A DNA stretch of 64,000 nucleotides from an uncultured virus (IMG/VR IMGVR_UViG_3300035670_009001) (IMGVR_UViG_3300035670_009001); one strand, 5' to 3'. Counted from the first letter of the stretch, positions 28,995 through 45,627 are shown. The notes: generated from the letters alone by a model not told the origin. Translations and numbers: made by a program.

Positions 28995-29665
28995 ACTCAG
29001 AAAACTTTATTTGGGAACCTAAATGTTATGATGGTTTTAGAGAAACCGTTGAAAAAGAAATTTTTGTAGATAAAATTTATGAAAGATTTTTTGAGGTTGA
29101 GGAGGGAGACATTGTATTCGATATTGGAGCAAGTTTAGGCCCATTCGCATATTCAATACTACATAAAAACCCTTCTCACGTGTTTGCATTCGAACCAAGT
29201 TATGAAGAATTCAAAACATTAGTTTTGAACACAAGGCATGGTAATGTGACTCAGATAAACAAAGGAATTAGTAGTACTATCGGTGAATTTAATTTCACAG
29301 ATGTTTTTGACACCTCAGGTAATTACAAACTTTATTCAACAACTTTCAATAAAGTAATACAAGATTATAATATCGATAAAATTGATTTTCTAAAAACGGA
29401 TTGTGAAACTGGTGAATATGATATCTTTACACTTGAAAATTTATTTTGGATAAAAAATAATGTTCGAAAAATATCAGGTGAATGGCATTTAAGACAGCCT
29501 TGGATGAAAGAAAAGTTTCGGATATTCCGAGACGTTTATTTAAGAGTTTTCACCAATTTCAAAGTGTTCTCATTTGATGGAGTTGACATTACATGGTCTT
29601 TATGGAATGACAATTTTATCCCATATTATAATGAAGTTATGATTTATATTGATAATAGAAACTAA
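28991..29665 (+). CDS. FkbM family SAM-dependent methyltransferase
   Basis: VFDIGASLG, AFEP, IDFLKTDCE.GE. Confidence 0.85.
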   Translation: MNSENFIWEPKCYDGFRETVEKEIFVDKIYERFFEVEEGDIVFDIGASLGPFAYSILHKNPSHVFAFEPSYEEFKTLVLNTRHGNVTQINKGISSTIGEFNFTDVFDTSGNYKLYSTTFNKVIQDYNIDKIDFLKTDCETGEYDIFTLENLFWIKNNVRKISGEWHLRQPWMKEKFRIFRDVYLRVFTNFKVFSFDGVDITWSLWNDNFIPYYNEVMIYIDNRN

Positions 29666-30471
29666 ATCAAATTATTTGGTAAATAACCTCTGAAATTTGT
29701 GTATAGGTGATTTTTTAACTTTTCAGCATAAATTTTATTGTGTAAAGGTCCAGGATGCATATAATCGACACCATAATCCTCAAATTTACCATATAGTCCA
29801 TCAAACCGATTGAATTCCCCGTATATCAGAGGTATTCCATTCCAACCATTCCACATCCAATTACACTTTTTATATCCCAAAAAATATTTTATCAATAAAT
29901 GATTTTTATACCAATTCATAAAATCTTCGTTATCATTCTGAATTGATGACAAATGGTTTTGTAATTCTTGTCCATCCTCAGTTTCTTTTATATATCCCCA
30001 CTGTGATGCCACCATGAATGGTTCAATACCACCATCCTTAGTATAAAATTCTCTCCTTTGGGGAGAGGTATACATAATCAAAACCAAATCCGGCTTAATC
30101 AAGTCATAATAAGATATCAGACATCTTGATATATAATCATTACTTCTCCCACCCATACCAAAGTTATGATTAACTCCGTTAGGTATTAATTTGGAAAATT
30201 GAGCCGGCCACGTTTCATCATTATTCACTCCAACACCTTCAGTATTGGAATCACCAATACACATTATTTTAAATCCTTCTTTATTTGTTGAGTCTCCTCT
30301 GAAACCGAGCTCATTATAAGTGTACGTACACAAACGGGTTTGGTCTGAACCAGATGTGTCATAAGATCGATTAACTTTTTCCGACAAATTCCATTTATAA
30401 CTTGAAATTTCGAATTCTTCAGGAGTCCAATATTTCAAATTATCAACACAGGGATGATAAGTTTTATTCAT
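29662..30471 (-). CDS. SGNH/GDSL-fold protein (acyltransferase or esterase)
   Basis: YNELGFRG, IGDSNTEG, DYMHPG. Confidence 0.75.
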   Translation of the reverse strand: MNKTYHPCVDNLKYWTPEEFEISSYKWNLSEKVNRSYDTSGSDQTRLCTYTYNELGFRGDSTNKEGFKIMCIGDSNTEGVGVNNDETWPAQFSKLIPNGVNHNFGMGGRSNDYISRCLISYYDLIKPDLVLIMYTSPQRREFYTKDGGIEPFMVASQWGYIKETEDGQELQNHLSSIQNDNEDFMNWYKNHLLIKYFLGYKKCNWMWNGWNGIPLIYGEFNRFDGLYGKFEDYGVDYMHPGPLHNKIYAEKLKNHLYTNFRGYLPNNLI

Positions 30472-30528
30472 AATATTAATTCGGAAAATACATACTTTTC
30501 TACAATCATAATTGGTCTCCTTCGAAAA

Positions 30529-31668
30529 TTAAATAATATTACTTTCAAATCTACGTAAAAAATATTTTTGTATTATTTGTTTATGAGTGTCGAAATTATG
30601 TAAGTTTAATTTATTGTGTTGGCAAATCCTAATAACTGAATCCGAATTATAAGTTTTAGACAATCTTATTCCGGCATCGATTACAGAATCTTCATTTGTA
30701 CAATCATACTTACCAATTACTGATTCAAATACATCAAATCCAAATTCTTTCAATTTATCTAAATGACCTTTAGATGCGAAAATTACAAATGGAACCCCTA
30801 AAAATATAGGTTTGAATGTTTTTTCGGTAAGATGTATTGGTCGATCAAAAGAATTTGACTCCACAATTAAATTAACTTTAGATTCATAATACCATATAGG
30901 ATTAATAGTATATAAAAACTCATCAGCTTTATCTAATTTTGTCCCATACATAACATCGTCTTGCAACTGAAATGAATTGAAACTATTTATGTCAATCTTT
31001 AAGTACTTAACAAATTCATCCTCTTCATAATCTTTCAAATTTATATAATTACAAACCCAAGTCCAATTTGTTTTATCCAATAATCCTCGTTTCCATAACT
31101 TTTTCAAAAAATCAAATTTATGCTTATGAACTCTTCGGTTTAGACAAATAAATTCTTTGGTTGGATTGTTCGTTTTGTATAAATCTAAATCCCCTAAATA
31201 CTTGTTCATTTCGATTGGGGTTGCTGACAAAAAATGTGGAAAATGAATATAATTTATGTGGTGTTTTCCATATTTTGATTTTCCTTGATTTATATTTGAA
31301 TTATTTGTTACCAAATAAAATTTGTTCAAATTAACACCACATTGTCTAATCCGTGTAATAAATTCGACTCTTTCAGAATCGATGAAAAAATTAGATTCGG
31401 TACTATAATCAGCCAAAAAATAAAATCCAAGATTGTTCATTTCTTTGATTAATTCAAAAAATTCAAACTTATTAGTTTTAAATTTAAAATTAATCGTATG
31501 TTCATTTTTTGGTTCCCACAGAAATACTATAATATTTTTTTTTCTCGAGTCAACAATGTCACTATCATACATCTTAAACTGAACTCCGAAATAATATTCC
31601 ATCAGACATTGAACTCCGCTACCCCCTGTTATAGGGTGGTACCAAAAATGTATATCATTTATTACCAT
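30529..31668 (-). CDS. putative glycosyltransferase, GT10-like paralog 1
   Basis: FICLNRR..HK, NLIVES, LTEKTFKPI...PF, LKEFGFD.F. Confidence 0.55.
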   Translation of the reverse strand: MVINDIHFWYHPITGGSGVQCLMEYYFGVQFKMYDSDIVDSRKKNIIVFLWEPKNEHTINFKFKTNKFEFFELIKEMNNLGFYFLADYSTESNFFIDSERVEFITRIRQCGVNLNKFYLVTNNSNINQGKSKYGKHHINYIHFPHFLSATPIEMNKYLGDLDLYKTNNPTKEFICLNRRVHKHKFDFLKKLWKRGLLDKTNWTWVCNYINLKDYEEDEFVKYLKIDINSFNSFQLQDDVMYGTKLDKADEFLYTINPIWYYESKVNLIVESNSFDRPIHLTEKTFKPIFLGVPFVIFASKGHLDKLKEFGFDVFESVIGKYDCTNEDSVIDAGIRLSKTYNSDSVIRICQHNKLNLHNFDTHKQIIQKYFLRRFESNII

Positions 31669-31682
31669 ATAATTAACTCATA

Positions 31683-32249
31683 CTATATAAACGCTTTGTA
31701 TTTTCTATACTTTTCACCATAAGGAAATTTAATTTTATTCAATTCTTCAATACCAATATAATCAATTAATTTTTTGATTCCATCACCATAATATAATTCT
31801 TCATAAGAAATTATGAAGCTACCTTCGACTTTGTACTTTTGAATCTCTTCTTTGATTTCTATTAAATAATCATCTGATTTGTCTAAAAGTAATGATTCAT
31901 CAAAAAAATATTTACCCCCCCATTTTTTGGTGTTAATTGACGTTAACCATGATTCCCTTTGTTCAACATAATTTTCTCTAAATAAAATTATAATCTTTTC
32001 AGAATTCTGAAGTATATTTTTGTAATTTTTATTCGGCTCACAGATTTCTTTAATGACCAAATGTTTTGTTAAATATTTCCACGTATCAAAATTATTGATG
32101 TTATTTATAACCACTTCTTTATCTGAATACTTTTTATATTCAGAATTAGTCGTTGGTTCAAGAAGCGTGGTGCATTCATTATGTTGCCCTAACCAAAACA
32201 ATAAATTAGTACTTCCAGATCTTGGCTCACTCAATATTGTAATAACCAT
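31683..32249 (-). CDS. sulfotransferase-like protein (Stf0/PAPS-binding)
   Basis: PRSGST PAPS loop, L.EP, L.R.N, ISYEEL. Confidence 0.7.
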   Translation of the reverse strand: MVITILSEPRSGSTNLLFWLGQHNECTTLLEPTTNSEYKKYSDKEVVINNINNFDTWKYLTKHLVIKEICEPNKNYKNILQNSEKIIILFRENYVEQRESWLTSINTKKWGGKYFFDESLLLDKSDDYLIEIKEEIQKYKVEGSFIISYEELYYGDGIKKLIDYIGIEELNKIKFPYGEKYRKYKAFI

Positions 32250-32284
32250 ACTAACTCTTCTTTTACCACAATAGGTTTGATTAA

Positions 32285-33367
32285 TTATATTAAAGTTTTT
32301 ATAGGTGTAATAAATTCTTGTAAGTTACCCCAACAATGATTATTTGGTAAGAAAGAATTAACTTCCTTTATAAATTCTTTATACTCCGAATGAGATTCAT
32401 TCCAAATTTGTTCTAATAAAAACTCCTCTTCAGTAAATGTGCCCCAATTAGTAATTTTATTATAGTATATGTCAGCTTTATTTCCGAAAATAGAATACAT
32501 TAAATCGTAAAACAACTTCATTTCTCGGTAATTTTTTTGTTGTACAACAAACGAAGTTTTTACTTTATTAATCCGTGGTATCGTTGAAATGAACCTTAAA
32601 TTGTCCATCAACACATCCCAATTACCATTTATTCTTGTTTTTGTTTCATAAGTTTCTTTTGTTCCCGCATCAATACTAATTTCGCAACTTTTCACATATT
32701 TGTGTATGTTTGGCATAGATTCCCACATTTCTTTATTCCAACGCGTTGCATTGGTGTGTAGGTGAATTGATTTTAGTTTTGGCCATTTAGTTTTATCAAA
32801 ATTCCTTAAAAAATCTCTAAAACCAACTGACACAAATGGGTCTCCACTGCCTGTTATATATAATGTATTAACTTCACTCCCGTATGCGTCTTCAATGTCT
32901 TGTATATCTTGTTTTACTTTTTTAATTTTTTTACTGTCAGCAATAATCATCTCTAACCTACATGAGGGACATTCAAGATTACAACTCCTATCCATAGAAA
33001 ATTGAATTATCTGTGGTGATGTTAATTTCCCTTCTTTATGTTGCTCTATTTTTAATTTTAAATCGGGGGTTAAATCATCTTTATGGTAAATGGGTTTAAT
33101 TCTACCAACATCTCCGAAGGTCTTTAGTTGATGTAAATATGGGCATTGTGTCTTATCACAATATCTATATGAACCATCTAATATACTGTCTCGAATATCG
33201 TTCGCCTCTTCTGAATTCCACGCTTCGTATGGTTTAGTATCTTCAGGTAAAAATTTAGTTAACCATGACGCGCAACATAAAAATCTTCGATGATCATGAA
33301 TTTCTAAAGAAGTAAACGGAACCGCACAAATATAATTTTTCAAATTGGATTTAGAATTCATAGCCAT
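32285..33367 (-). CDS. radical SAM protein with an N-terminal twitch/SPASM-like Cys cluster
   Basis: CNLECPSC, TGSGDP; N-terminal C..PF..CC..W...C...C. Confidence 0.85.
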   Translation of the reverse strand: MAMNSKSNLKNYICAVPFTSLEIHDHRRFLCCASWLTKFLPEDTKPYEAWNSEEANDIRDSILDGSYRYCDKTQCPYLHQLKTFGDVGRIKPIYHKDDLTPDLKLKIEQHKEGKLTSPQIIQFSMDRSCNLECPSCRLEMIIADSKKIKKVKQDIQDIEDAYGSEVNTLYITGSGDPFVSVGFRDFLRNFDKTKWPKLKSIHLHTNATRWNKEMWESMPNIHKYVKSCEISIDAGTKETYETKTRINGNWDVLMDNLRFISTIPRINKVKTSFVVQQKNYREMKLFYDLMYSIFGNKADIYYNKITNWGTFTEEEFLLEQIWNESHSEYKEFIKEVNSFLPNNHCWGNLQEFITPIKTLI

Positions 33368-33386
33368 ATTAAAGATTAATTTAATC

Positions 33387-33878
33387 TCAAATTATTTTTG
33401 ATTTCCCTAAATCACGTTCTCTTATGTAAAATAATCCAGTATATCTAATACCTTTTGTGATAGGTTTAACTTCGTGATATTCTGTAGATTTATAGTGATA
33501 TAAATCCCCAACATCAGCAACGAATAATTTATCATTTAAAAAAAATTCACCACCTTCATAATCATCATTCAATTTTAAATTTATGTTATATACAAAATCT
33601 TTATTAAATTCGGTGTTTGGATTTCTATCAATATGTCTAGGAAAATAATCTCCTACCGAATATCGTATAACACCTAAATTAACATTCAATATAGATAAAC
33701 CAAATTGTTCTTTTCCGTAATTAACTATTTTATTAGAAATATATTCTTCTGGTTGAAATGTGTAAATATGGTAATGTGGTTCAAGCCCGTACAAGTGTGG
33801 CCGTTTCCAATTATTTTGTTCTTCACAAAACTTTATAATATCATTACATTCATTTCTTGTGAATAATTTTTTATGCAT
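33387..33878 (-). CDS. 2OG-Fe(II) oxygenase (prolyl hydroxylase-like)
   Basis: Y..GD.F..HID, LNDDYEGGE, HEV.PI..G.R. Confidence 0.85.
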   Translation of the reverse strand: MHKKLFTRNECNDIIKFCEEQNNWKRPHLYGLEPHYHIYTFQPEEYISNKIVNYGKEQFGLSILNVNLGVIRYSVGDYFPRHIDRNPNTEFNKDFVYNINLKLNDDYEGGEFFLNDKLFVADVGDLYHYKSTEYHEVKPITKGIRYTGLFYIRERDLGKSKII

Positions 33879-33889
33879 GTGCTTACTAT

Positions 33890-34366
33890 TTACATTAATT
33901 TTTTTTCTCTAACTCTTTCGTATGCTAATATCATACCAACTAACCAATCAGATGTCAATATATCCCTCTCGTGAAATATTTTACTTCCTTCGAATATTAC
34001 GCCATCACCTTGTTCTAAAATTATTTCAATTTTTTCACCACCAATCCAAAGATATAAAGGACTTATAGATGAATCGGATTGTTTAATTAAAACACTAATA
34101 ACAAGTTCACATACATCCTTATGTTTATGAAGTTTTTGTCCTTTGAGTGATTTTCTTGTATATCCTAAAATTGTTTTTACTTTTGTTGAATAAAATTCTT
34201 CAACTTCTATTTTTAATTTTTCGGCATATATATCTGATATGTACCATTTATGTACTATATCAGAATCTTTGACTAACCAATCTTTTTTTTTCTCTAATTT
34301 TTCAAATTCAGAAAAAATGAATTCACATTCATCTAATGATAAAGCATTTTTAATTATTTTATACAT
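33890..34366 (-). CDS. 2OG-Fe(II) oxygenase
   Basis: L.KHKD, GDG.IF.G...HER. Confidence 0.75.
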   Translation of the reverse strand: MYKIIKNALSLDECEFIFSEFEKLEKKKDWLVKDSDIVHKWYISDIYAEKLKIEVEEFYSTKVKTILGYTRKSLKGQKLHKHKDVCELVISVLIKQSDSSISPLYLWIGGEKIEIILEQGDGVIFEGSKIFHERDILTSDWLVGMILAYERVREKKLM

Positions 34367-34406
34367 GTTTATATTGTATACTTGTTATCTGATTTGTATT
34401 TTTTTA

Positions 34407-34982
34407 TCAAATAAAATCTTTATCTTCAATTTTAAAATCAACAAAAGGTTCTTGTACGTTAAGTAATGTATGTAATTTTTTATACATATCATAAGAACCT
34501 TTCGGACCTGGATGATCATCTCGTTTTTCTCCAGTACCTTCTTGCCAATTTGTACTAACTTGTATTAATGAAACGAAATCAGGTGTACATCTATGAAAAT
34601 ATTTACTCCAAGTAACAAATACCGGATTATACTCATTTAAAAAAAATTGTAATTTTTTAAAAAACTTTATTTCATTATCTCGTTCACCATTTATCCACCG
34701 ATAATACTCATCGATTTTCAATAAATCCAACCTATTTATTAAATTACCATTTGCATAAAATCGAGTAGGTATTCTACCGGGGTCAGTAAATACAATCAAA
34801 ACTCTATCTCCAACCTCAAAATCAGGTAAATCCCCCAATTGAAATATTATTGAATTATTATCCGCACCACGAACTCCAAGTTTAATAAGTTCGTAATGAT
34901 GTGACATGTAATACGTCCAATGGTATTTTGGAATATCATAATCAACAAATGAATCACCGAAACAAAATAATCTATGTTTCAT
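34407..34982 (-). CDS. SGNH/GDSL-fold protein
   Basis: CFGDSF, G..N, DDHPG. Confidence 0.7.
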   Translation of the reverse strand: MKHRLFCFGDSFVDYDIPKYHWTYYMSHHYELIKLGVRGADNNSIIFQLGDLPDFEVGDRVLIVFTDPGRIPTRFYANGNLINRLDLLKIDEYYRWINGERDNEIKFFKKLQFFLNEYNPVFVTWSKYFHRCTPDFVSLIQVSTNWQEGTGEKRDDHPGPKGSYDMYKKLHTLLNVQEPFVDFKIEDKDFI

Positions 34983-35014
34983 ACCTATTTGTTTTCATTA
35001 TAGACTATTTTGTA

Positions 35015-35167
35015 TTATAAATGTTTTGTAATAAACAATTCAAAAAATTTATTAACTACAAGTTGAACTCTTTCCTTTTCTTCGGAGGTTAGTTGGGATG
35101 TAGTCCTATTATTAACATCATTTAACGCCTTTTTTTTATATAATGGTGGGTGATTAGCTATATCCAT
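35015..35167 (-). CDS. small protein, 50 aa (MDIANHPPLYKKKALNDVNNRTTSQLTSEEKERVQLVVNKFFELFITKHL), not in the ORF track
   Basis: translated by hand; fills the gap directly after the Hint protein gene. Confidence 0.55.
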   Translation of the reverse strand: MDIANHPPLYKKKALNDVNNRTTSQLTSEEKERVQLVVNKFFELFITKHL

Positions 35168-35196
35168 AATTATTTATTTTTTTATTACTGTCGATT

Positions 35197-37482
35197 TTAT
35201 TGAAAAACGGCTTGTCTTTTAAAGGTTTTATTTAGTAATTCATTATCTCCTAATCCAGAAACTATAAAATCCTCAACTATGAAGTTATGCTCACTTTCAA
35301 ATAAAAGATTACCATCTATTTCTAAATTATAAAAATTATCTACATATTGAATACCTAATTCAACTCCATTTGCTTCGCAAATTGGTTTCCATTCCCCGTT
35401 ATCATAGAATGGGTGTATTCTATCAGAAGTCATTCCCTTATATTTTACAACCTCAACAACATCATTTGTAGGGTGTATTAATTTATCAGTTACAACACCT
35501 CTCACATATTTACCATCCTTATAACTTAAAACGTAGTCTCCTACTTTAATATCCGCAATATTTTTGAAACTACCATCTTCCATTTTTACTTTAGTTTCAG
35601 CAGTGAAACAAATAAGAACGGGACGTAAATTGTGTACTAATACATTATTGGCAAAATATGTATGATATTTTTCAATTTCTGATAAGTTATATACGAGAGT
35701 AGATTCTTCTATCACACTCATGTTAACTAATTTAACATCTCCGTTATGTAATTTTACAACATCGCCAATTTCTATTTTTTCTACTTCTATTTTTTTAGTC
35801 GGTTTAGTTCCTTCAAATGAAACATTATTATAGTCTTCTGGCTCACCTGCATAATTGGCCCATCCCTTATTGATAACATAGATTGGGTGGTCCAATGTCG
35901 CCTTCAAATTAGTTCCATCTGAAAATTCATATTGAACAATCTTATCAATTGTTTTAGAAAAAATATTCAAAACTTTACTAACTTTTGATTGATTATTTTT
36001 CAAATCAAATGACATTACATAATCACCGACTAATATATCTTCAATATTTTTTGTAAGTCCGTTTTTTAACAAAATTTGTGTTCCAGCAACAAAACAAGGG
36101 GCATTATGAGAAACTACCGAATTAATTGCGGTAGAACCATTTATAATGTAAGTATCCGCATCCTCGACATCTAATTCAACATAAGTTAAATTATTGTCAG
36201 TGGTCACATAAAAATTTAATTCATCTATATCTATCAAATTACCGTTAATATCATATAAATAATCTGTTTCAGGATCTATAGTATGTATAGTTTTAAATGA
36301 ACCTGTGTCAGAAGTAGAGTTAAAAGTCAAAAATGATTTTCGTATTCCACTGAAAAAGGAATCACTATCCACTTTCAATTCAAACATACTATTGTATTTT
36401 AAATTTTCCAATTTTTTATAAATAACAATTGAGGATGTTAGATATGAACCACTTGGAAATGTGCTAGTTGGGAAACTAAAATTAGTATTTGATTGTTCTT
36501 CAATAGAACGAGATATATAATAAGATTTTACATAATCACCTACAACAAATTCTGATATGGGTTTATATGTATCTTCATCAGTTAATATTTCGTGAGTTGA
36601 TAATATTCCGGCCGAATCATTTTTAAATAAGTTAGTTGTAAATTCATAATAATGATGATCGGCAATTTTATTTGTATATTGATTTTCAACTATTTCTGAA
36701 GTCAAATCTGTTGGTAAATCAAATATTGAGCTAATTCTATAAGTGTGTAAAGTTAGTACGTCCAAATTAGAACCATATACAATACCGAAAAATCTATATG
36801 ATGTAATGTGGTTGTTTCCATCTACATTAGATGAGTGAAAATGGTATTGTTCTATTAATTTATCTTCTGATAAATTTTCAGTAATAAAATTATTCCATCT
36901 GTCTTCATCTGATTCGTTTTCGGTTTGTGAACCTATTTTAAAGAAATCAATTGGATTGTGTACCTCAGATATATCCTTTATGGTCGCGTCTGGTATATTA
37001 TTTGGATTTATCTCTTTTGTAAGGGTGTTTTTTTCACCTAATGATGATGAATGAAAATATCCGACACAATAATCGTTTATAGAATTATCGGTAAATAAAT
37101 TAAAAACATTTAATCTATTTTTACAATATTCACTATCAAACAAAGCAGATTCATCATAAGCCAATCTTAGAATAAATTTACCTTCGGAATCTTGAACTTG
37201 GGTCGGGTATATGGTATCTATGTCTTCCTTGTGTAAGTTTATAAGACTTATTTCAGGTGCCATAGAAGTTGTAAGTTGATTTACAAATTTTTCTTGAAAC
37301 TCGGTTTTATAGATAATATCCAATTCAGAAATATTATTATCTACTAATATTTGTTTAAAATTAGAAAAATCAAAATTAACTAATTCTTGATTTATAAATC
37401 CTGTATCAGTATTCAATTCTAATAATCTCAAATTACCATTTGAGTCCTTGACAAAATCAGCAGAAAATAATGTTCCTTTCAT
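35197..37482 (-). CDS. ATP-grasp-like domain fused to three tandem Hint (intein-like) domains
   Basis: N-terminal SADFVKDSNGNLRLLELNTDTG; Hint1 aa292-460 (G..VGDYV..VSHN), Hint2 aa463-618 (CFVAGT..T.DHP..LVHN), Hint3 aa625-761 (CFTAET..HPF). Confidence 0.8.
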   Translation of the reverse strand: MKGTLFSADFVKDSNGNLRLLELNTDTGFINQELVNFDFSNFKQILVDNNISELDIIYKTEFQEKFVNQLTTSMAPEISLINLHKEDIDTIYPTQVQDSEGKFILRLAYDESALFDSEYCKNRLNVFNLFTDNSINDYCVGYFHSSSLGEKNTLTKEINPNNIPDATIKDISEVHNPIDFFKIGSQTENESDEDRWNNFITENLSEDKLIEQYHFHSSNVDGNNHITSYRFFGIVYGSNLDVLTLHTYRISSIFDLPTDLTSEIVENQYTNKIADHHYYEFTTNLFKNDSAGILSTHEILTDEDTYKPISEFVVGDYVKSYYISRSIEEQSNTNFSFPTSTFPSGSYLTSSIVIYKKLENLKYNSMFELKVDSDSFFSGIRKSFLTFNSTSDTGSFKTIHTIDPETDYLYDINGNLIDIDELNFYVTTDNNLTYVELDVEDADTYIINGSTAINSVVSHNAPCFVAGTQILLKNGLTKNIEDILVGDYVMSFDLKNNQSKVSKVLNIFSKTIDKIVQYEFSDGTNLKATLDHPIYVINKGWANYAGEPEDYNNVSFEGTKPTKKIEVEKIEIGDVVKLHNGDVKLVNMSVIEESTLVYNLSEIEKYHTYFANNVLVHNLRPVLICFTAETKVKMEDGSFKNIADIKVGDYVLSYKDGKYVRGVVTDKLIHPTNDVVEVVKYKGMTSDRIHPFYDNGEWKPICEANGVELGIQYVDNFYNLEIDGNLLFESEHNFIVEDFIVSGLGDNELLNKTFKRQAVFQ

Positions 37483-37501
37483 AATATATTCCTTTTAATT
37501 G

Positions 37502-37508
37502 ATAAATA
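37502..37508 (-). promoter_or_regulatory. TATTTAT motif upstream of the Hint gene
   Basis: ataaata about 20 nt upstream of the ATG. Confidence 0.35.
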
Positions 37509-37525
37509 TCCCAGTAATCATTTCG

Positions 37526-38020
37526 TTATATTATATTAATTTCTCTTTTGATTGAACTTTTACTGATAAAAGATATGAGAGACCATCTTTCTCCCATCGT
37601 AACTTCTTTGACTTCGTGTAGTTTACTTCCATAAAACGAATATATCGAGCCCTTAATTTTTGGCATTACTATTTTTGGATTATAACAAATTAATTCACCA
37701 CCCTCATAGTCATCATTAAGACAAGCTCCAATATTAAATTCGCTTCTTTTATCCACATGAGGTTCAAATTTATTACCTGACTGAACGTTCTGTAAATGTA
37801 TCAGACTTAACGGTTCTATTAATCTAATTTTGGTACTCGATTCTAAATAGTTTGTAAGTCTTTCGAAAATCCATTCTGTATCCTCATCCCTCGTAATATG
37901 CCATGCAAAATAAATCGTTTCATTACTTTGCCACCATTCACTCGAATAATGTTTTTCAAAAATATTAGATAGTGAAATAATTTTTTCACATTCTTCTATC
38001 GTAAATTTTATCTCGTTCAT
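37526..38020 (-). CDS. 2OG-Fe(II) oxygenase
   Basis: F.PHVD, LNDDYEGGE, HEV.EV..GER; paralog of 33387..33878. Confidence 0.85.
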   Translation of the reverse strand: MNEIKFTIEECEKIISLSNIFEKHYSSEWWQSNETIYFAWHITRDEDTEWIFERLTNYLESSTKIRLIEPLSLIHLQNVQSGNKFEPHVDKRSEFNIGACLNDDYEGGELICYNPKIVMPKIKGSIYSFYGSKLHEVKEVTMGERWSLISFISKSSIKREINII

Positions 38021-38053
38021 TCAACTCTATTAGAATTATATCATATAATAAAT

Positions 38054-38170
38054 TCAATGGTTGTAAATAAAAGGGTCTCTTTTCTTTAACTCTTCAATTT
38101 TCTTTTTTAACTCTTTTTTCCTTTTGTGGTCTTTAATTTTTTTCAAAAACCAATTGATAATTTTTTTCAT
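38054..38170 (-). CDS. small Lys-rich protein, 38 aa (MKKIINWFLKKIKDHKRKKELKKKIEELKKRDPFIYNH), not in the ORF track
   Basis: ATG overlaps the carbamoyltransferase stop (ATGA). Confidence 0.65.
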   Translation of the reverse strand: MKKIINWFLKKIKDHKRKKELKKKIEELKKRDPFIYNH

Positions 38171-39837
38171 AGTATTTTATATATTATATAATTATCTAAA
38201 ACTAGTAAGTCTAAATCAGTGTCTTTGAAAGTTTCTATCGCATCAAACGGATTTAGAACCATTGTTTTATCTTTAACATTAAAGGATGTATTCAATATAA
38301 TTGGATATCCACTTAGTTTTTCGAACTCAATTAATAAGTCGTGAATAACAGTATTTTCATATACAGTTTGAATTCTTGAGGTTCCGTCCACGTGAACAAC
38401 TGCCGATAATTTATCAGCGTATTCTTCTCTAACTTTAACAATTTGATTCATGTATGGTACATCATCAATTGCGTAGAAGAACTCATTTTGTTTCTCTTTA
38501 ATAACCATAGGAGCGAAAGGACGAAACCCCTCTCTTTTCTTAATTAGCCTATTAATTCTAGATTTCATATCAGGAACTGTAGGGTCCGCTAAAATAGACC
38601 TGTGTCCTAACGCTCTTGCCCCAAATTCAATTCTATCTCTATACCACCCAACTACTTTACCCTCATGAATTTTGTTCGCGACATATTTTATTAATCTGTT
38701 GTAATCGTGAATTTCAAAAAAATTCAAATTTTTAATGTGCCCCAAATAAAATTCAACATCGTACTCCGGTCCTAAAAAAGGATTTTTAGTTACTCGTTTG
38801 TCTAATTTTTTATTTTGTACAAGGTAATGAATACACGCACCAACACAGGATCCAGCATCAGATGGTGCAACTGGTATCCAAATTTTTTCAAAATCAGAAT
38901 TACTTACTATCTTTCCATTTGCGGTACCATTATATGCCGAACCACCTCCTAAACAAAGATTATTACTACCAAGATTTTTCAAACTTTTGATAATATCGAA
39001 TAAAACTTCTTCGTATCTTAGTTGGACTGAAGCCGCTAAATTTTGATGAATTGTAGTAATTTCTTCTTCAGTTAATCTTGGTGAAATACCTAAATGTTCT
39101 ATCAGTTTTTCGTTGAACATCAATTTTTCTGACTTATCCCAACAAAAAATATTCATATTACAGATTAATTCTCCATCTTTGAATTCTATTAAACTTCTAA
39201 TTTTTTCAATATACTCTTGAGGATCTCCGTATGATGCCAATCCCATTAGTTTGTACTCTCCCTCATTTGGTTTGAATCCCAAATACGAAGTCATTGTAGA
39301 ATAGTAAAGACCCAATGAATGAGGGTATTTCCCCAAATCATGATATTCAATTCCATCATCATCGGCCAAACCAAAAGATAATGTGTCAATTTCACCAACA
39401 CCATCAATAGACAAACAGATTGCCCTTTCAAAATCGGAAGTGAAAAAAGAATAATACTGATGAGCCAAATGGTGTTCGGAGTAAAATACTCTTCCCTTAA
39501 ATGGTCTCAAATGTTTATTTACATCTGAGATATTTTTTAAGATTTTAACTAAAGATTTAAAAGAATATTTTGGCGATGTGAAAAAGTTTTTCTTAATGTT
39601 AGTCAGTACCCTTTTTAGTTTTAGATTGAGGTCTTCATAATAACAAACCATTTCAATATCATCATAAGTTATACTATAATGACTAAAGATGTATTCGATT
39701 GTATTAATTGGAAAAGAACTGTCGTGTTTAATTCCCGTAAATTTTTCCTCTTCGCAAGCGAAAACCAACTCACCATCTTTGAATAAACAGGCAGATGAAT
39801 CATGATAAAATGATGATATTCCGAGTATATACATCAT
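38167..39837 (-). CDS. carbamoyltransferase (NodU/CmcH family)
   Basis: HDSSA..EEK, HH.AH, DGVGE, EYKLMGLA.YG, EFGARALG.RSI, FRPFAP, HVDGTSRIQ, LNTSFN. Confidence 0.95.
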   Translation of the reverse strand: MMYILGISSFYHDSSACLFKDGELVFACEEEKFTGIKHDSSFPINTIEYIFSHYSITYDDIEMVCYYEDLNLKLKRVLTNIKKNFFTSPKYSFKSLVKILKNISDVNKHLRPFKGRVFYSEHHLAHQYYSFFTSDFERAICLSIDGVGEIDTLSFGLADDDGIEYHDLGKYPHSLGLYYSTMTSYLGFKPNEGEYKLMGLASYGDPQEYIEKIRSLIEFKDGELICNMNIFCWDKSEKLMFNEKLIEHLGISPRLTEEEITTIHQNLAASVQLRYEEVLFDIIKSLKNLGSNNLCLGGGSAYNGTANGKIVSNSDFEKIWIPVAPSDAGSCVGACIHYLVQNKKLDKRVTKNPFLGPEYDVEFYLGHIKNLNFFEIHDYNRLIKYVANKIHEGKVVGWYRDRIEFGARALGHRSILADPTVPDMKSRINRLIKKREGFRPFAPMVIKEKQNEFFYAIDDVPYMNQIVKVREEYADKLSAVVHVDGTSRIQTVYENTVIHDLLIEFEKLSGYPIILNTSFNVKDKTMVLNPFDAIETFKDTDLDLLVLDNYIIYKIL

Positions 39838-41570
39838 TGAAAATTTATCAAACTTTGGAAAAAGTTGTGGTCTGTTTTATCATCATACAAACTTGAAACT
39901 ATATCTCTATTATGTTTGAATCTTTTCTTTGCACTTCTATAAAATCCCTGTAACTGATCTTTTTTCTTACTGACTCTCACAATTTCATTAATAACCATTC
40001 TCATCCTTTTTTGTGGATTTGGTTCATTATCATAACTTAAATCAAAGAAATCTTCAAAAAAATCAAATCCATACACTTCTTTTGTTTTTTTAATGTGATG
40101 ATAATTAGCGACAATTAATGGGAACTGTGAGTAATAAAATGGTATTAATGTTTTCTCAGTAATGTGAACCAAATTATCTTTTTCAAATTGAGATTCATTA
40201 ACAATATTAATGTATGAATTTTTGTATGGATTATTTTCAAACATTTGATTCCAATTTTGACCTCCCTCAGGAGTGTCTATATCATAATCCTCAAACTCAC
40301 TTTTTTTAACATCAATATTTTTGAAAAAGTTTAAACTATCTTTTGTTTCCTTAACTAACTCTTCGTCAAATACGTTCAACAAAATATCAGGATTTATATC
40401 TCCATTTTCTAATTTCATTGCCTCAAGTCTATTTCCTCTTAAGAAAGACCAATCGGTTTCATCTAATAAATTATGGTGTTTTAGTGCCGTTAGGATAGCT
40501 AATCTATGCATGGTAAGATTTCTGTTATAGCACATAAACGTTTTTTCTTTTTCCACTTTGAAATGATACCCGTCACAAAAATTTACAATATTTCTTGTAA
40601 CTACTAATGGAAGTCTGTTCGACACATGAACATTTATTTTAGAACTTATTTCTTTTTTCAATTCTGGTAGTAACTGATTACCATTGATAATAAAAACTTG
40701 TTCTGTTGGTATTCCAACCATTTTAAGTTGGTAGTCCGCAATTTTTATAACATATCCCATGTCACATTCATGTTCCGTTACAAAAATAACTTTGAAGTTC
40801 GGATTTTTTTTCAATAACACTTTAATTTCTTCCGATACTGGAATATCTCTATGTTCTAAAATATATTGTGATAAATAATAATTTACATGTACCAAATGAT
40901 AAAAATTTTCATCTTTTTTTTCTGATATTTCAGCAGTTTCACATATTTTATAATTTTCAATTTCATACCATCCAGCGCCCATAAAATCTTCAATCATACG
41001 TGTGTTAGTACTTTCATTCGAATCATCGGCTATGAGATTTAAAACTGTTTTATTATGATACAATTCCGGATACTCATTTATAATATACACCCCAAGATTA
41101 TCTTTTGCAAATTGATAATGTAATTTTACATCCTCTATAGTTTTACAATCGAAAAATTTAATATTTTTACATAAAGATTTAAATTCTTCAATGTAGTTCG
41201 CCTTGTGTTGATGTCCTGGATCTAATGGTATTTCAGAACCTTTACCCACCCTAATTATGATGTGAACCTTTTCACCCGTCATCAATTCATACTTATCGAC
41301 ATGATTTACCAATTGATTTGTTGCCGATATTAAAAAATCCCATCTTGGATAAAACGTAATAACTCTTTTCCCTGTCATCGCCAAACCCAAACTCATACCC
41401 ATTTGTGTTTCTTCCATCACAGGAACCTCAATCATTTTTTCTTTGGGCACATCATCAAGTGTCGTACTCATCGGATTTCCCCTGTAAACTATTTGTTGAC
41501 CAATAAAAACTGTATTATCATCATTAGATAAATCGGTCATAATTTGAGAAAGTGTTTCTTTATATGTCAT
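39834..41570 (-). CDS. fusion of a transketolase/E1-beta pyrimidine-binding domain and GT10-like paralog 2 (start probably ATG 41570)
   Basis: IEVPVMEETQMGMSLGLA..GHQH; C-terminal FMCYNR..HR..NIVNES..ITEKT..PF..YGFDFF. Confidence 0.75.
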   Translation of the reverse strand: MTYKETLSQIMTDLSNDDNTVFIGQQIVYRGNPMSTTLDDVPKEKMIEVPVMEETQMGMSLGLAMTGKRVITFYPRWDFLISATNQLVNHVDKYELMTGEKVHIIIRVGKGSEIPLDPGHQHKANYIEEFKSLCKNIKFFDCKTIEDVKLHYQFAKDNLGVYIINEYPELYHNKTVLNLIADDSNESTNTRMIEDFMGAGWYEIENYKICETAEISEKKDENFYHLVHVNYYLSQYILEHRDIPVSEEIKVLLKKNPNFKVIFVTEHECDMGYVIKIADYQLKMVGIPTEQVFIINGNQLLPELKKEISSKINVHVSNRLPLVVTRNIVNFCDGYHFKVEKEKTFMCYNRNLTMHRLAILTALKHHNLLDETDWSFLRGNRLEAMKLENGDINPDILLNVFDEELVKETKDSLNFFKNIDVKKSEFEDYDIDTPEGGQNWNQMFENNPYKNSYINIVNESQFEKDNLVHITEKTLIPFYYSQFPLIVANYHHIKKTKEVYGFDFFEDFFDLSYDNEPNPQKRMRMVINEIVRVSKKKDQLQGFYRSAKKRFKHNRDIVSSLYDDKTDHNFFQSLINFQ

Positions 41571-41580
41571 ATTATTTAAT

Positions 41581-42213
41581 TTAGAACGCCACCCACTTAC
41601 CAGTCCCATAATGTGGGTACTTTGATTTGTATTCATACCAAATTACATCGTTTGGTATATCTTTTTTTATGTTATTCCATGTTGCCTCTGTTGGAGTATA
41701 AGTCGAAACTCCGTTATCTTCTACCACAAAATAAAGTGGTAAATCAAAGTTTCTTGCATACTTATGTGTTTCATAAAATAACCCACTTTCAAAACTCATA
41801 TCACCAACGAATACCCACACTTTTTCATTTCCACCACTTTGTTTGATACTCATAGCAACACCTAAGGCAATTGATAGGGTTCCTCCAACAATCGCTGAAG
41901 AATAAAACTTATCTTTTGGGCTACAAATTGTAATAGATTTACCTTTCAAAATTTGATTTTCTAACCAATTGGGACAAATACCTTTCACTAAAGCGTGATA
42001 ATGTGATCTCCACGTAGAAAAAACCCAATCAGATAAACCGATTCTTTTGGAGATTTCTATCAAATGTTCTTCATTCCCATTAGACAAATGTACTGGCCCT
42101 CTTATTTTACCACTTTCCCAACTTTCGATTATCTTATTCTCAAAGTGAATAAGTTCTTCTGTATTCCAATTATGTTCCCTGACTATTGGATATTGGTCTA
42201 AATTTTTTATCAT
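41581..42213 (-). CDS. TPP-dependent dehydrogenase E1-alpha-like subunit
   Basis: GPVHLS.GNE, STWRSHYHAL, GD...E.G...E, VVEDN. Confidence 0.85.
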   Translation of the reverse strand: MIKNLDQYPIVREHNWNTEELIHFENKIIESWESGKIRGPVHLSNGNEEHLIEISKRIGLSDWVFSTWRSHYHALVKGICPNWLENQILKGKSITICSPKDKFYSSAIVGGTLSIALGVAMSIKQSGGNEKVWVFVGDMSFESGLFYETHKYARNFDLPLYFVVEDNGVSTYTPTEATWNNIKKDIPNDVIWYEYKSKYPHYGTGKWVAF

Positions 42214-42767
42214 TTGTCTTTCATTTGAAGTATCGGATTATTTGACGGCCATTCTATATTCCACTTTGGGTCGTTCCATTTTGCCACCCCATGGTTTATT
42301 GAATCGACATATCCTCCTTTATAAAACATATTGTAATGAAACACGCAATCAGTTAATGCGTAATGACCGTTCGCAAAACCTGGTGGAACTAAGACTTGGT
42401 CTCTATTTTTTTCTGAAATTAAAAACCAATCCCATTTTCCATAATTAGGTGAATTCTCTCTTATGTCCAACACAACTAAGTATATGTCACCAACTAATGC
42501 TTGTACTAATTTCCATGTTTTGTCATCGTAATGTAAACCTCTTAAAACTCCTTTGTATGATTTTGAAAATCTTCCGTGAATAGATAGTTCATTTTTATCA
42601 TAATGAATTTGACTCATAACAGGATGGTCCTCAGAATGATAAGTTGTAAAAATCTCCCCCCTGAATTCTCTGAATATAGATGGAGTGTATACAGGGACTT
42701 CATAACCAAAAATTTTAGATGGCCTTACATCAAAATCGTTCCATTTTTTTTCATTCATAAATTCCAA
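42210..42767 (-). CDS. rmlC: NDP-4-keto-6-deoxysugar 3,5-epimerase (RmlC family)
   Basis: RG.F, S..GVLRGLH, KLV....G.I..V.LD.R..SP..GKW, VPPGFANG. Confidence 0.85.
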   Translation of the reverse strand: MEFMNEKKWNDFDVRPSKIFGYEVPVYTPSIFREFRGEIFTTYHSEDHPVMSQIHYDKNELSIHGRFSKSYKGVLRGLHYDDKTWKLVQALVGDIYLVVLDIRENSPNYGKWDWFLISEKNRDQVLVPPGFANGHYALTDCVFHYNMFYKGGYVDSINHGVAKWNDPKWNIEWPSNNPILQMKDK

Positions 42768-43498
42768 TATTTTTTTCTAATCTTATAGACATCAAATGGC
42801 TCTCGTTTCATTTGTCCACCTTGTCTAAGGTTTGACCCAATTGTTTTATAGCTCATCACAATTGATCTTCTATAGTTTTCACTATTATTATCCTCGGAAC
42901 CATGAACTAAATAATCGTGAGTAAATAAAACGTCACCAGATTTACATTCGTGATATATTTTTTTGAAATTATGATTTTGTGGCATCACGCATCCCTTACC
43001 TCTTTCATTTTTCCAAAATGTTGGGTTTGTTTTTATTCTTTCCTCATCAATTTCAATGGGTAACATAGGTAAAAAGTGGGACGATTCATATGACCAAAGA
43101 CACCCGTTCGATCGGTCACTATTATCTAAACAAAAAATTACATTTATCGAATTACCCCAGCCAGATTCAGTATAAAAACCATCTTGATGAGCGTCTCTAC
43201 CCATTTCACCAGGTGGTTTAAAATATGCCTGACTTTGTATCCCTTCAATCTTATTGTTTAACATATCCTCAATAATTTCAATTACTTTAGGATGCCCAAA
43301 ATATTTTAAAATTAATTCAGATTCTTTATGGGGGTGTGAATATATACCATATTCACCCCATGACGAATCTTTTTTATTCCTTTGAATTCTTAGATTACTT
43401 AATTCATTATTAATCTCATCAACATCATTTTGTGATAAAATATTATTTACCAAATAACCCTTATATTTCCAATCAAAAATTTCTTTCTCTTTTAACAT
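42755..43498 (-). CDS. phytanoyl-CoA dioxygenase (PhyH) family 2OG oxygenase (start probably ATG 43498)
   Basis: KPPG...HQD, LD.....NGCL....SH, GD.LF.H...VHGS..N.S..R. Confidence 0.85.
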   Translation of the reverse strand: MLKEKEIFDWKYKGYLVNNILSQNDVDEINNELSNLRIQRNKKDSSWGEYGIYSHPHKESELILKYFGHPKVIEIIEDMLNNKIEGIQSQAYFKPPGEMGRDAHQDGFYTESGWGNSINVIFCLDNSDRSNGCLWSYESSHFLPMLPIEIDEERIKTNPTFWKNERGKGCVMPQNHNFKKIYHECKSGDVLFTHDYLVHGSEDNNSENYRRSIVMSYKTIGSNLRQGGQMKREPFDVYKIRKKYWNL

Positions 43499-43508
43499 AA
43501 GATATTTT

Positions 43509-43919
43509 TTATTCCCAACTAATACCCCAATCTTTGAACTCTGAGGCCAAACAATCTGTTTTATAATCTTTTCTACCACCAACAATTTCTTGTATTTTAT
43601 TCTTGGCAGTATTTCTAACACCGTTTAATCCGTGAGTTAATTCCAAATTAATGTCCTCCGTTTTGCCATATTTTCTATAGTTGGACTCGTTGTGCCAAAT
43701 GTGTAAATTAGTTTGAGCTAAAACCACAATCGCTCTTACCGTGTCGGCGTTAATTAACTCATTTGAATTTTTTAATATTAAGTCAATATCATGTTTAATA
43801 TCTCTAATTTCCTGAGCGTATTCTTCTTTATGTTCAGGTATGAATTGCTCTTTTAATTGCGAAATACTCAATCTATCAATCAACTCAGCTAATGTTGGTA
43901 AGTACTTACGTTCTGTCAT
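43509..43919 (-). CDS. hypothetical helical protein (DUF4254-like)
   Basis: ELIDRLSI, N..IWH.E, LN..RN motifs; sits among sugar-pathway genes. Confidence 0.5.
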   Translation of the reverse strand: MTERKYLPTLAELIDRLSISQLKEQFIPEHKEEYAQEIRDIKHDIDLILKNSNELINADTVRAIVVLAQTNLHIWHNESNYRKYGKTEDINLELTHGLNGVRNTAKNKIQEIVGGRKDYKTDCLASEFKDWGISWE

Positions 43920-43921
43920 TT

Positions 43922-44929: not shown

Positions 44930-45627
44930 ATCGTAAATTTTTTATACAAGTAATCAGAAAACAAATTATTCATCCTAAAACTCCAATGTATATCATTTTC
45001 TAATCCATATTCACCATTTGATTGATAAAAAACATCCCTATGAGTCTCCCATTCTCCAATATTTTTTGTCAAAACATCTTTATCCTCTATAATATAAGAT
45101 TTAAAATCCATTTTATCCCAAGAAAATACGAACTTTTTACCATTAGTCAAAGTATAAAGTGATTCAATTATTTCAATTTGGTTTAATTGATTTGCATTAG
45201 ACCCATTTATAATTTCTTGAAATTCTAACTTTTTTTCGAATTCTTTCCAACTAAATTCTTTACCGAAAGTTTCAATCTCTGTGTCCTTATTGTTATAGGA
45301 CGAAGTTCCAATAAATCGATTTACATATTTTATATCTCTTTTTTCAAATAATTGATAATCTTTTTCAGATAGAGGTAATCTAGTTCTCTTGAAAAAAGGA
45401 ATACAAATGACTAAATAATCTTCTGAGTTAATAACTGGTAACATTTTAATCCAATTATCGATAATTGTTTGAACATCTCTACTTGGCTGTCCATCACATA
45501 TCAAATTTGTATTTAATTTTTCAGACAATTCATTAGCCCAAAAACATTTATTTTGATTCAATTCTTCCTTCACATAAAAACTATCTCTACAAAAACTATC
45601 TCCAATTACGAATAAATTACTTTTCAT
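44926..45627 (-). CDS. SGNH/GDSL-fold protein (start probably ATG 45627)
   Basis: VIGDSF, DIHWS. Confidence 0.65.
   Translation of the reverse strand: MKSNLFVIGDSFCRDSFYVKEELNQNKCFWANELSEKLNTNLICDGQPSRDVQTIIDNWIKMLPVINSEDYLVICIPFFKRTRLPLSEKDYQLFEKRDIKYVNRFIGTSSYNNKDTEIETFGKEFSWKEFEKKLEFQEIINGSNANQLNQIEIIESLYTLTNGKKFVFSWDKMDFKSYIIEDKDVLTKNIGEWETHRDVFYQSNGEYGLENDIHWSFRMNNLFSDYLYKKFTI

Follow-up and report, generated by a model that had tools for sequence, protein, structure and literature searches.

The window, which is the whole 64,000-nucleotide stretch of DNA analyzed here, derives from an uncultured virus (IMG/VR IMGVR_UViG_3300035670_009001) and carries on its minus strand a single open reading frame (ORF), at 35197..37482, which has an ATG start and a stop codon at 35197-35199 and encodes a protein of 761 residues, hereafter the ligase-Hint protein. 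A preliminary description, made from the sequence alone, had presented it as an ATP-grasp-like ligase fused to three tandem Hint domains with complementary catalytic ends. In the translation, the predicted ligase domain is followed by Hint1, which ends with His459-Asn460; by the spacer Ala-Pro; by Hint2, which runs from Cys463 to His617-Asn618; by the spacer LRPVLI; and by Hint3, which begins with Cys625 and reaches the C-terminal end of the protein (...AVFQ) (Table 1). The module coordinates of the preliminary description were exact, and the catalytic ends that it had listed, that is, Gly at the Cys1 position of Hint1, the placements of the other Cys1 residues and of the His-Asn pairs, and Ala or Leu behind these pairs, can be read directly off the translation.

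The complementary set of catalytic ends claimed there was also found to be conserved among the relatives. In 124 close sequences, Gly292, Asn460, Cys463, and His532 are each present in all 124, and His617 and Asn618 in 123, with His459 kept in 105. On the 761-residue protein, the Pfam families Hint (E 1.7e-14), Vint (E 1.1e-13, residues 625-746), PT-HINT (E 4.3e-11), and Intein_splicing (E 7.5e-9) were detected, and the Hint-type families register from residue 454 onward only. The nearest solved sequence relatives are the bacterial intein-like (BIL) domain of C. thermocellum (2lwy) and BIL2 of the Tetrahymena BUBL1 locus (6tmm and 6y75).

For the N-terminal domain (residues 1 to about 288), the predicted fold and the conserved motifs show a compact, circularly permuted ATP-grasp amide ligase of the YgiC/glutathionylspermidine synthase (GspS)/eukaryotic glutathione-synthetase clade, with the metal- and ATP-binding motifs retained. 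The AlphaFold2 (AF2) model of residues 1-462, built on an alignment of 111 family members, reached a pLDDT of 95.0 and a pTM of 0.90, with the ligase and Hint1 modeled as one rigid body; the domain folded alone reached a pLDDT of 96.5. When the domain was compared with 48,161 chains using VIA, the 11 top chains all belonged to the permuted ATP-grasp clade (Z 9.7-7.3), and the next row had a Z of 6.4. These top chains include YgiC (7uka; Z 9.7, root-mean-square deviation (rmsd) 4.0 Å, 205 aligned residues), a glutathione-synthetase-like protein (Z 9.7), GspS (2io7; Z 9.2), eukaryotic glutathione synthetases, two putative GspS/GCS proteins, the ligase Cp1B, and trypanothione synthetase. Foldseek likewise returned YgiC (7uk8; E 4.6e-6, TM 0.46).

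The permutation is seen in where the alignments start. The unpermuted ATP-grasps (ArgX, LysX, RimK, TTLL, Ddl, and bacterial GshB) align only from model residue 44-52 on, as circular permutation predicts, whereas the members of the permuted clade align from model residue 1-3. In the domain, the predicted metal-binding hairpin (Asp9...Glu22-x-Asn24) comes first, and Lys169 and the hinge motif LIEQYHF (208-214) come later. In hhalign against E. coli YgiC, ADFVKD...LLELNTDT was placed on LDLAWD...LLENNADT (9.7%), with D9, E22, and N24 on D102, E115, and N117 of YgiC. A local alignment to a YgiC profile, which is shallow in that its homologue search gave relatives at 77% identity or more only, placed residues 4-234 on 96-356 (17.3%), collinear with the structural alignment, with Lys169 on the lysine of VVKP and LIEQYHF on MIVQQFH; local mode was used here, the global mode having given a meaningless end-to-end alignment. 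The aligned Asp, Glu, Asn, and Lys positions are those we take to bind metal and ATP in ATP-grasp enzymes. Across the 111 sequences, with identity down to 17%, D9, E22, and D116 are invariant, and N24, K169, and R230 are kept in at least 90%. The fold prediction thus agrees with the earlier proposal that residues 1-290 resemble a permuted ATP-grasp ligase of the glutathionylspermidine synthase type, and the motifs noted at that time map onto YgiC.

For residues 1-291, no Pfam family registered at E<=1 and no NCBIfam family was matched, and a search of the 202-kb relative G001 with PF03738 (GSP_synth) gave no match at E<=10, while the E. coli and Caulobacter controls matched. When the family alignment was used as a profile to search the PDB sequences, neither the N domain nor most of Hint1 gave a match, all the best stretches starting at profile position 434 or beyond. 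In the ESM Atlas, the top clusters for residues 1-291 were unnamed (0.91-0.90), and ATP-grasp families appeared at 0.88, which lies under the trust line of the tool and serves as a lead only. Because the domain matches no Pfam or NCBIfam family and, compared with YgiC, lacks about 95 residues at its front, we assign it to the fold clade as a divergent member, and not to the Pfam GSP_synth family.

For residues 292-460, in which no Pfam family registers, the AF2 model and the sequence comparisons show a Hint domain that has, as judged from its residues, lost the N-terminal chemistry and kept the terminal His-Asn. In VIA, the Hint1 part of the model (residues 289-460) superimposed on 2lwy with a Z of 19.4 and an rmsd of 1.6 Å over 138 of 138 residues, and on BIL2 (6tmm) with a Z of 18.6. 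In total, 27 intein, BIL, Hog, and Vint chains matched it at Z 9.9-19.4, the inteins, Hedgehog, and Vint lying at Z 9.9-18.3, and Foldseek returned 6y75 (E 6.1e-10). The starts of Hint1 and Hint2 had been said to align without gaps; BLASTP agrees (10 of 24 residues identical, E 0.004), and the two profiles align over the full length in hhalign (90.6%, E 1.3e-6). The Cys1 position of Hint1 is Gly292 in 124/124 close sequences, and the block-B Thr-x-x-His of Hint2 faces D-x-x-S/F in Hint1, that is, the block-B His is lost. Of 111 representatives with 17-56% identity, 109 retain the His-Asn of Hint1. These results suggest that Hint1 would be able to cut behind Asn460 only. The two folds on which the preliminary description had staked itself beforehand, ATP-grasp for residues 1-290 and Hint for residues 292-460, were thus both recovered, the latter by the AF2 model and its superposition on 2lwy. 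Hint1 also holds an insertion that is not in Hint2 (window 36400-36480, about residues 335-360), which includes a motif, W..G..LPSGS..TSS.V, conserved in the consensus of 111 members and lies near the predicted partner contacts at residues 364-377 described below.

By its catalytic residues, Hint2 (residues 463-618) is a type-A BIL-like module, with Cys463, the block-B His532, and His617-Asn618, followed by Leu619 at +1. For this module, the search of the family profile against the PDB gave BIL2 6y75 (E 3.8e-25) and 2lwy (E 7.2e-24). In 270 family proteins, the BIL-type modules keep Cys1 in 301 of 301 and in 85 of 87 cases and His-Asn in 298 of 299. The residue behind His-Asn in the 298 modules is K (142), R (115), L (17), Y (11), F (9), T (2), A (1), or V (1), so that a canonical +1 nucleophile occurs only as the 2 Thr. 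The +1 Cys, Ser, or Thr of class 1 inteins is replaced in the window by Ala461 behind Hint1 and Leu619 behind Hint2, and Hint3 has no C-flank; the modules also do not sit at a conserved insertion site of a host protein, but stand one after another at the C-terminal end with 2 and 6 residues between them. Canonical splicing is excluded because the +1 Cys/Ser/Thr is missing, as the preliminary description had held. At -1 of Cys1, Pro is found for the first extra Hint in 121/121 close homologues and in 153/387 modules overall. In intein practice, Pro at -1 is unfavorable for the N-S acyl shift and thioester formation.

Conversely, Hint3 (residues 625-761) is a Vint/Hog-like module by the same comparison: Cys625 is present, the terminal Asn is absent, and there is an additional C-terminal region. 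Its Pfam Vint match reaches 51.8 bits against a cut-off of 27. In hhalign of Hint2 against Hint3 (99.4%, E 2.3e-21), Ser742-Gly743 takes the position of His-Asn, and across 77 sequences S742 is kept in 75 and G743 in 74, with the 18-residue extension (744-761) nearly invariant. A MAFFT column had suggested Asn751 as a hidden terminal Asn; this candidate was rejected, since the profile alignment sets Ser742-Gly743 there. Recent tandem duplication of the Hints was likewise rejected. In a tree of 127 modules, the nearest relative lies in another protein for 127/127, the first modules grouping with first or only ones and the last with last ones, which indicates that the extra Hints are old and position-specific and not recent duplicates.

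Comparison of the relatives shows that everything behind Asn460 corresponds to a variable tail, which in the window consists mainly of two Hints, one type-A BIL-like and one Vint/Hog-like. Four types of tail were observed behind the His-Asn of Hint1. Some representatives have only 1-10 residues there, in most cases including Lys and Pro; in others, between one and three BIL-type Hints follow after a spacer of 0-12 residues. The remaining two types have a Cys-rich peptide, either alone or with a BIL behind it (P0253, P0254, and P0257). The ligase and Hint1 with a tail but no extra Hint make up 18/150 representatives. Among the 121 close homologues, 73 have the layout of the window, 32 have two BILs ending with ...HNK, and 16 have three BILs. 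For the first spacer, AP (79), SP (41), and HP (1) were found in these 121 homologues; in the wider family of 111 representatives, it spans 0-12 residues and is unconserved beyond the close relatives, and in 18/111 the next Cys1 directly follows the His-Asn of Hint1. The second spacer varies among the close homologues from a single R to about 11 residues (e.g., R, RA, RAPVVS, and YRPPAT); the pattern used for the later spacers also caught flanking residues and serves solely to show that they vary. Because the spacers run from 0 to 12 residues across the family, AP and LRPVLI look like remnants of the variable tail and its junctions, and not like defined products.

These comparisons bear on the proposal that the protein releases AP~ and LRPVLI~ as thioester-activated micro-peptides. 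With zero to three extra Hints and with spacers that vary as described above, the comparison of Hint number and linkers across homologues lends it no support, and the position assigned to the micro-peptides is that of the variable tail, which in relatives holds a six-Cys peptide of about 25-32 residues. Overall, the folds, the catalytic ends, and the missing +1 nucleophile of the preliminary description stand, and the micro-peptides as products do not. Two further observations concern the tail: a terminal Lys is at most a candidate functional mark of it, Lys-rich ends being frequent in this A+T-rich genome; and in the distant P0230, P0239, and P0268, a conserved C-terminal region ending with ...DYS(K/Q)(L/I)D... 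stands behind a Cys-rich stretch.

A gene for a 50-residue protein starts 29 nt past the stop codon of the ligase-Hint ORF (Table 1), and a homologous ORF of 41-52 residues lies downstream in 81/81 related loci that have downstream sequence. The complex model of residues 1-462 with this protein gave an ipSAE of 0.87, a mark reached by 116/157 solved complexes and 2/215 mismatched pairs, compared with 0.02 for the best control. Three runs had at least 91% of contacts in common, with a pLDDT of the partner of at least 86. In the model, the partner contacts residues 8-33, 114-139, and 221-254 of the ligase and residues 364-377, 400-404, and 421-432 of Hint1. These results support the prediction that the 50-residue protein clamps the ligase and Hint1 together. 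The preliminary description mentioned neither this gene nor the tagged neighboring enzymes described below.

Searched as a whole, the protein matched 929 relatives at E<=1e-3, and the best 120 of these are 53-90% identical, have 684-919 residues, and lie on contigs of up to 326 kb. A search with the N domain yielded 258 clusters at 50% identity among 1.84 billion metagenomic representatives, and in nearly all of the 150 representatives listed of these clusters the domain begins at residue 1. P0198 (2181 residues, 17 matched stretches) is a repeat protein with summed weak matches and was left out of the counts and alignments. Relatives occur on IMG/VR viral contigs, including one 202-kb record rated complete. 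In 50,697 cultured phage records, no significant match to the N domain was found (two matches, E 0.8 and 1), and no near-identical DNA was found for window 30000-45000. The window encodes replication genes of a phage (an SbcCD-like pair, a primase, a RuvC-like resolvase, and a sigma factor), and its primase shares no more than about 30% identity with those of cultured phages (SPO1-like and Flavobacterium phages). Given this divergence and the absence of near-identical DNA, the phage remains unplaced among the cultured phages.

Table 1. Positions of the ligase-Hint ORF, its predicted modules, and the neighboring genes, counted from the first nucleotide of the window
Feature	Position	Strand	C-terminal end	Basis or place
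Whole ORF: ligase, Hint1, AP, Hint2, LRPVLI, Hint3	35197..37482	-		translation
Predicted ATP-grasp amide-ligase domain, residues 1-288	36619..37482	-		AF2, VIA, Foldseek, hhalign
Hint1, residues 292-460	36103..36609	-		VIA, hhalign, residue conservation
Spacer Ala-Pro, residues 461-462	36097..36102	-		translation
Hint2, residues 463-618	35629..36096	-		Pfam, profile against PDB, residue counts
Spacer LRPVLI, residues 619-624	35611..35628	-		translation
Hint3, residues 625-761	35200..35610	-		Pfam Vint, hhalign
Partner ORF, 50 residues	35015..35167	-	KHL	29 nt past the ligase-Hint stop codon
Carbamoyltransferase	38167-39837	-	KIL	upstream
2OG-Fe(II) oxygenase	37526-38020	-	NII	upstream
Tagged gene	34407-34982	-	DFI	downstream
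Tagged gene	33890-34366	-	KLM	downstream
2OG oxygenase	33387-33878	-	KII	downstream
Radical SAM	32285-33367	-	TLI	downstream
Family found in 52/80 related loci	31683-32249	-	AFI	downstream
Tagged gene	30529-31668	-	NII	downstream
GDSL/DUF6071-like	29662-30471	-	NLI	downstream

The genes that flank the ligase-Hint ORF and its partner, among them 2-oxoglutarate (2OG) oxygenases and a radical S-adenosylmethionine (SAM) enzyme, share a C-terminal tag of two hydrophobic residues. The tag is present in 9/9 flanking genes (29662-34982 and 37526-39837) compared with 2/46 other genes of the window. In the related loci, it was found in six unrelated families (138/138, 69/69, 74/74, 58/63, 54/54, and 61/64), whereas it was found in 0/17 members of an unrelated neighboring family and in 43/237 other ORFs. 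Translational coupling was rejected as the cause of these ...[LIF][ILM] ends: the gaps to the next start are 11-146 nt, and TAA, TAG, and TGA stops are all used.

When viral contigs were scanned using the Cys-rich subgroup of the family, 312 relatives were returned, of which 80 loci were kept. Their tails consist of the His-Asn, one to three residues, and then a Trp/Tyr-rich six-Cys framework of about 25-32 residues. The loci are syntenic, with 2OG-Fe(II) oxygenases in 71/80 and a Trp halogenase (PF04820, E 1.9e-87) in 54/80, the latter 2-6 genes upstream of the ligase-Hint gene (L012-L091, e.g., L043:1446-2687). Three unnamed families occur in 65, 63, and 52 of the 80 loci, DUF6071 in 41/80, and radical SAM in 16/80. 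A tagged 95-residue ORF resembling a zinc ribbon (CxxC...CxxCxC) lies directly upstream of the ligase-Hint gene in 69/80 loci (e.g., L017:1150-1437); it is not in the window, where a 2OG oxygenase takes its place.

The window and the six-Cys island have in common the radical SAM gene at 32285-33367 (54% identical), the gene at 31683-32249 of the 52-loci family (45%), three 2OG oxygenases, and the DUF6071-like gene. Conversely, the halogenase, the zinc-ribbon ORF, and the 65-loci family are missing from the window. By their shared genes, the three-Hint form and the six-Cys forms are variants at one island of related phages. Since the six-Cys loci have both the halogenase and the Trp-rich tails, and the Hint-tailed window has neither, the halogenase goes with the Trp-rich tails, and the tail may be the natural substrate of the viral Trp halogenases. 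Among the features expected of a locus for peptides that are made on the ribosome and modified after translation (RiPPs), conserved neighboring tailoring enzymes are present (2OG, radical SAM, and others, with synteny across the 80 loci); a core peptide is not seen in the window, where only AP, LRPVLI, and two Hint modules stand behind Asn460.

Sugar-nucleotide and glycan genes form a 40-kb island around the ORF (window 24122-29665 on the plus strand and 39834-63836 on the minus strand). This glycan island includes a 1309-residue protein with a pyruvyl-transferase and three glycosyltransferase domains, a dTDP-sugar epimerase, several NAD epimerases/dehydratases, DegT aminotransferases, a B12-radical SAM enzyme, and UDP-glucose dehydrogenase, and the tag occurs on only 2/27 of its genes. 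At 13932-23793 on the minus strand, there are five large ORFs (215-1000 residues), which are family-less or hold DUF5122 beta-propeller repeats (19366-20778, E 2.2e-69) and probably encode virion or fiber proteins. The G+C content is about 0.36 at 1-24 kb and goes down to about 0.28-0.30 in the island.

These observations lead us to a reading to which we give an even chance: in a large ligase-Hint family confined to viruses, of which the ORF represents the three-Hint form, the Hints self-process, a variable tail stands behind Asn460, and the ligase joins a carboxylate to an amine. Hint1 would cut the chain behind Asn460 via Asn cyclization. Hint2 would free itself by forming a thioester at Pro462-Cys463 and by cyclization of Asn618, and Hint3 would make a thioester of Ile624 at Ile624-Cys625, which water or another nucleophile would resolve. 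AP and LRPVLI would be leftovers of the tail. The ligase would use ATP to activate a carboxylate and would then join it to an amine; the likeliest carboxylate is the C-terminus of a peptide or protein that the module makes or holds, since the structural relatives of the ligase also activate peptide or protein carboxylates. The nine tagged enzymes would share one substrate or dock on one scaffold.

Several points weigh against this reading. The cleavage, thioester, and ligase steps, and with them the self-processing of the 761-residue protein, are suggested by residue conservation and models. Because Pro462 stands at -1 of Cys463, the N-terminal reaction of Hint2 may be slow, delayed, blocked, or absent. 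The positional age of the extra Hints argues for a function of these modules that the reading does not name. In the window, the nine tagged enzymes are kept in spite of there being no peptide core, so that the tail may not be their substrate. The complex score of the partner comes from a model run on alignments that we built ourselves. For the N domain, the fold match is moderate (Z 9.7 and 4.0 Å over 205 residues, with TM about 0.46), the profile support against YgiC is weak (hhalign 9.7% and 17.3%), the front is about 95 residues shorter, and Pfam GSP_synth does not match.

A wider proposal, which we advance only tentatively, is that the locus is a virus-only modification platform, in which at least nine enzymes recruited by the tag act on the tail behind Hint1, Hint1 releases it, the ATP-grasp domain makes one amide, and the Hog-like Hint passes on the end that it holds as a thioester. 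The recruited set would comprise the 2OG oxygenases, the radical SAM enzyme, the carbamoyltransferase, and sulfotransferase-like proteins, together with the Trp halogenase in relatives. The amide would be a ring closure or an attachment to an amine. In the three-Hint form, the end of the tail would be activated without ATP as the thioester of the Hog-like Hint and then passed to a nucleophile.

The extra Hints are given more weight if the protein is a conjugation device in the manner of Hedgehog or BUBL, in which the Cys1 thioesters, instead of simply being hydrolyzed, hand over what lies upstream of them to a target that offers an amine or hydroxyl; this we consider unlikely. Hint3 would then transfer ligase-Hint1-AP-(Hint2)-LRPVLI, or the tail alone after the Hint1 cut, with the 18-residue extension recruiting the nucleophile. 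The absence of a terminal Asn in Hint3, as in Hog and Vint, the near-invariance of its extension, the positions kept by the modules over long times, and Lys or Arg behind His-Asn in 257/298 modules would all suit such a role. However, only 2 and 6 residues precede the thioester-forming Cys residues, with no cargo domain; the 18/150 representatives that have no extra Hint would do without the device; no target or nucleophile can be named; and Pro at -1 of Cys463 disfavors the acyl shift. The top solved relative of Hint2 speaks for it again, being BIL2 of the Tetrahymena BUBL1 locus, which forms a Lys-epsilon isopeptide and, with no need for ATP, dispenses a ubiquitin-like domain (PMC8616854).

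If, on the other hand, Hint2 and the ...HNK-type Hint3 or Hint4 of relatives were intein-like insertions in the tail that remove themselves and rejoin their flanks, they would need no further function for the phage. That relatives have anywhere from 0 to 3 extra modules, and that these stand right behind the His-Asn of Hint1 and just before the terminal Lys, is as expected of such passengers. In P0254 and P0257, moreover, the six-Cys peptide is separated by a BIL from a final KK, the ends of Hint-free relatives read ...GG(x)K(x), and the Hint-free tails are short and rich in Lys and Pro, as AP+R+K would be. This explanation is nevertheless distinctly unlikely: the +1 nucleophile of canonical splicing is missing, Hint3, with neither Asn nor C-flank, is not spliceable, no homing endonuclease is present, the modules are old and position-specific, and type-A BILs, according to a review, carry His-Asn, occur in hypervariable regions, and cleave without being able to ligate their flanks (PMC7765530). 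The release of AP~ and LRPVLI~ as functional acyl donors for the ligase or for conjugation, as first proposed, is very improbable. Each spacer does have His-Asn before it and Cys1 after it, x-Pro follows Hint1 in 121/121 close homologues, and R/x-Pro recurs in the second spacer; P0253, P0254, and P0257 hold a six-Cys peptide exactly between Hint1 and the BIL, which indicates that this position can hold real cargo. In the 18/111 representatives whose first spacer has zero residues, however, there is nothing to activate, the second spacer, down to a single Arg, is too variable for a defined product, and Pro at -1 disfavors the thioester. It is also conceivable that there is no processing and that the Hints are inert structural or oligomerization domains of a phage enzyme. 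The case for cleavage is so far one of residue conservation, and Hint1 would have a structural role at least, given its rigid packing against the ligase in the model (pTM 0.90) and its predicted contacts with the partner. The retention of Cys1 in 386/388 modules, of His-Asn in 298/299, and of the His-Asn of Hint1 in 109/111 at 17-56% identity makes such inertness barely credible.

The title of Dassa et al. 2004, which is among the references of PMC7765530, mentions 'protein splicing and auto-cleavage'. In the literature searched (topics BIL, BUBL, YgiC/YjfC, Hint, and phage RiPP, with subscription papers and supplements lying outside), no description of the ligase-Hint design was found, in agreement with the preliminary description, whose author knew of no described system with such an architecture, and the words Hint, intein, and phage are all absent from the graspetide survey PMC8939145. 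The parts, ATP-grasp ligases and BIL and Hog Hints, are known; the combination is in no paper and no family library searched. In this combination, an enzyme is permanently joined to a Hint that would only cleave, a hypervariable tail follows, a very small subunit is predicted to act as a clamp, and C-terminally tagged tailoring enzymes surround the whole; it is common, with 258 clusters at 50% identity and hundreds of viral contigs of up to about 330 kb, and is absent from the 50,697 cultured phage records. If the proposed chemistry holds, the family would represent a new viral way to make, release, or attach modified peptides and a natural counterpart of engineered two-intein or split-intein cyclization, and would offer protein engineering Hint modules with unusual flanks (Pro at -1, Lys or Arg at +1). 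If the platform proposal holds, the phage would have a self-contained, enzyme-fused route for attaching a short modified peptide to a target. The three-Hint form is a test case for extra Hints as passengers or as working parts.

Among the known systems, YgiC/YjfC (annotated peptide--spermidine ligase), GspS, trypanothione synthetase, eukaryotic glutathione synthetase, and Cp1B have the permutation and the collinear motifs in common with residues 1-288. These enzymes have 370-600 residues compared with about 290 here, and the approximately 95 residues before the YgiC hairpin are missing. Unlike YgiC and GspS, the phage domain is always fused to a Hint and always adjoins the gene of the 41-52-residue partner, and it matches no GSP_synth or NCBIfam family.

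The type-A BILs (2lwy, 6tmm, and 6y75), which are the top matches of Hint2 and Hint1, share with Hint2 the Hint fold, Cys1, the block-B His, His-Asn, the absence of a C-flanking nucleophile, and a location in a variable protein region. Unlike the BILs, the modules here form a tandem series of three that follows an enzyme and is encoded by a virus; the first is without Cys1 and the block-B His and the last without Asn. In BUBL, a ubiquitin-like domain lies between BILs; here the flanking order is kept, but the stretches have 2 and 6 residues and there is no cargo domain. As in Hedgehog/Hog and Vint, Hint3 has Cys1, no terminal Asn, and a C-terminal extension, and its thioester would be expected to be resolved by an outside nucleophile. 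In contrast to these, no signaling or vWA cargo precedes Hint3, the 18-residue extension has no detected likeness to sterol recognition, and the setting is a phage. The PT-HINT of polymorphic toxins, to which the Pfam match points, similarly stands before a hypervariable C-terminal cargo that it is thought to release, whereas in the window no toxin, secretion or trafficking domain, or immunity gene was recognized, and the N-terminal part is a predicted ATP-grasp ligase. Finally, unlike RiPP systems with ATP-dependent amide ligases (graspetides and lasso peptides), the peptide in this family is fused behind the enzyme and a putatively self-cutting Hint, with no leader removed by a protease, the tailoring enzymes share a C-terminal tag, and the window has no core peptide; conversely, the relatives resemble these RiPP systems in combining a short hypervariable Cys/Trp-rich peptide, tailoring enzymes, and a ligase that presumably uses ATP.

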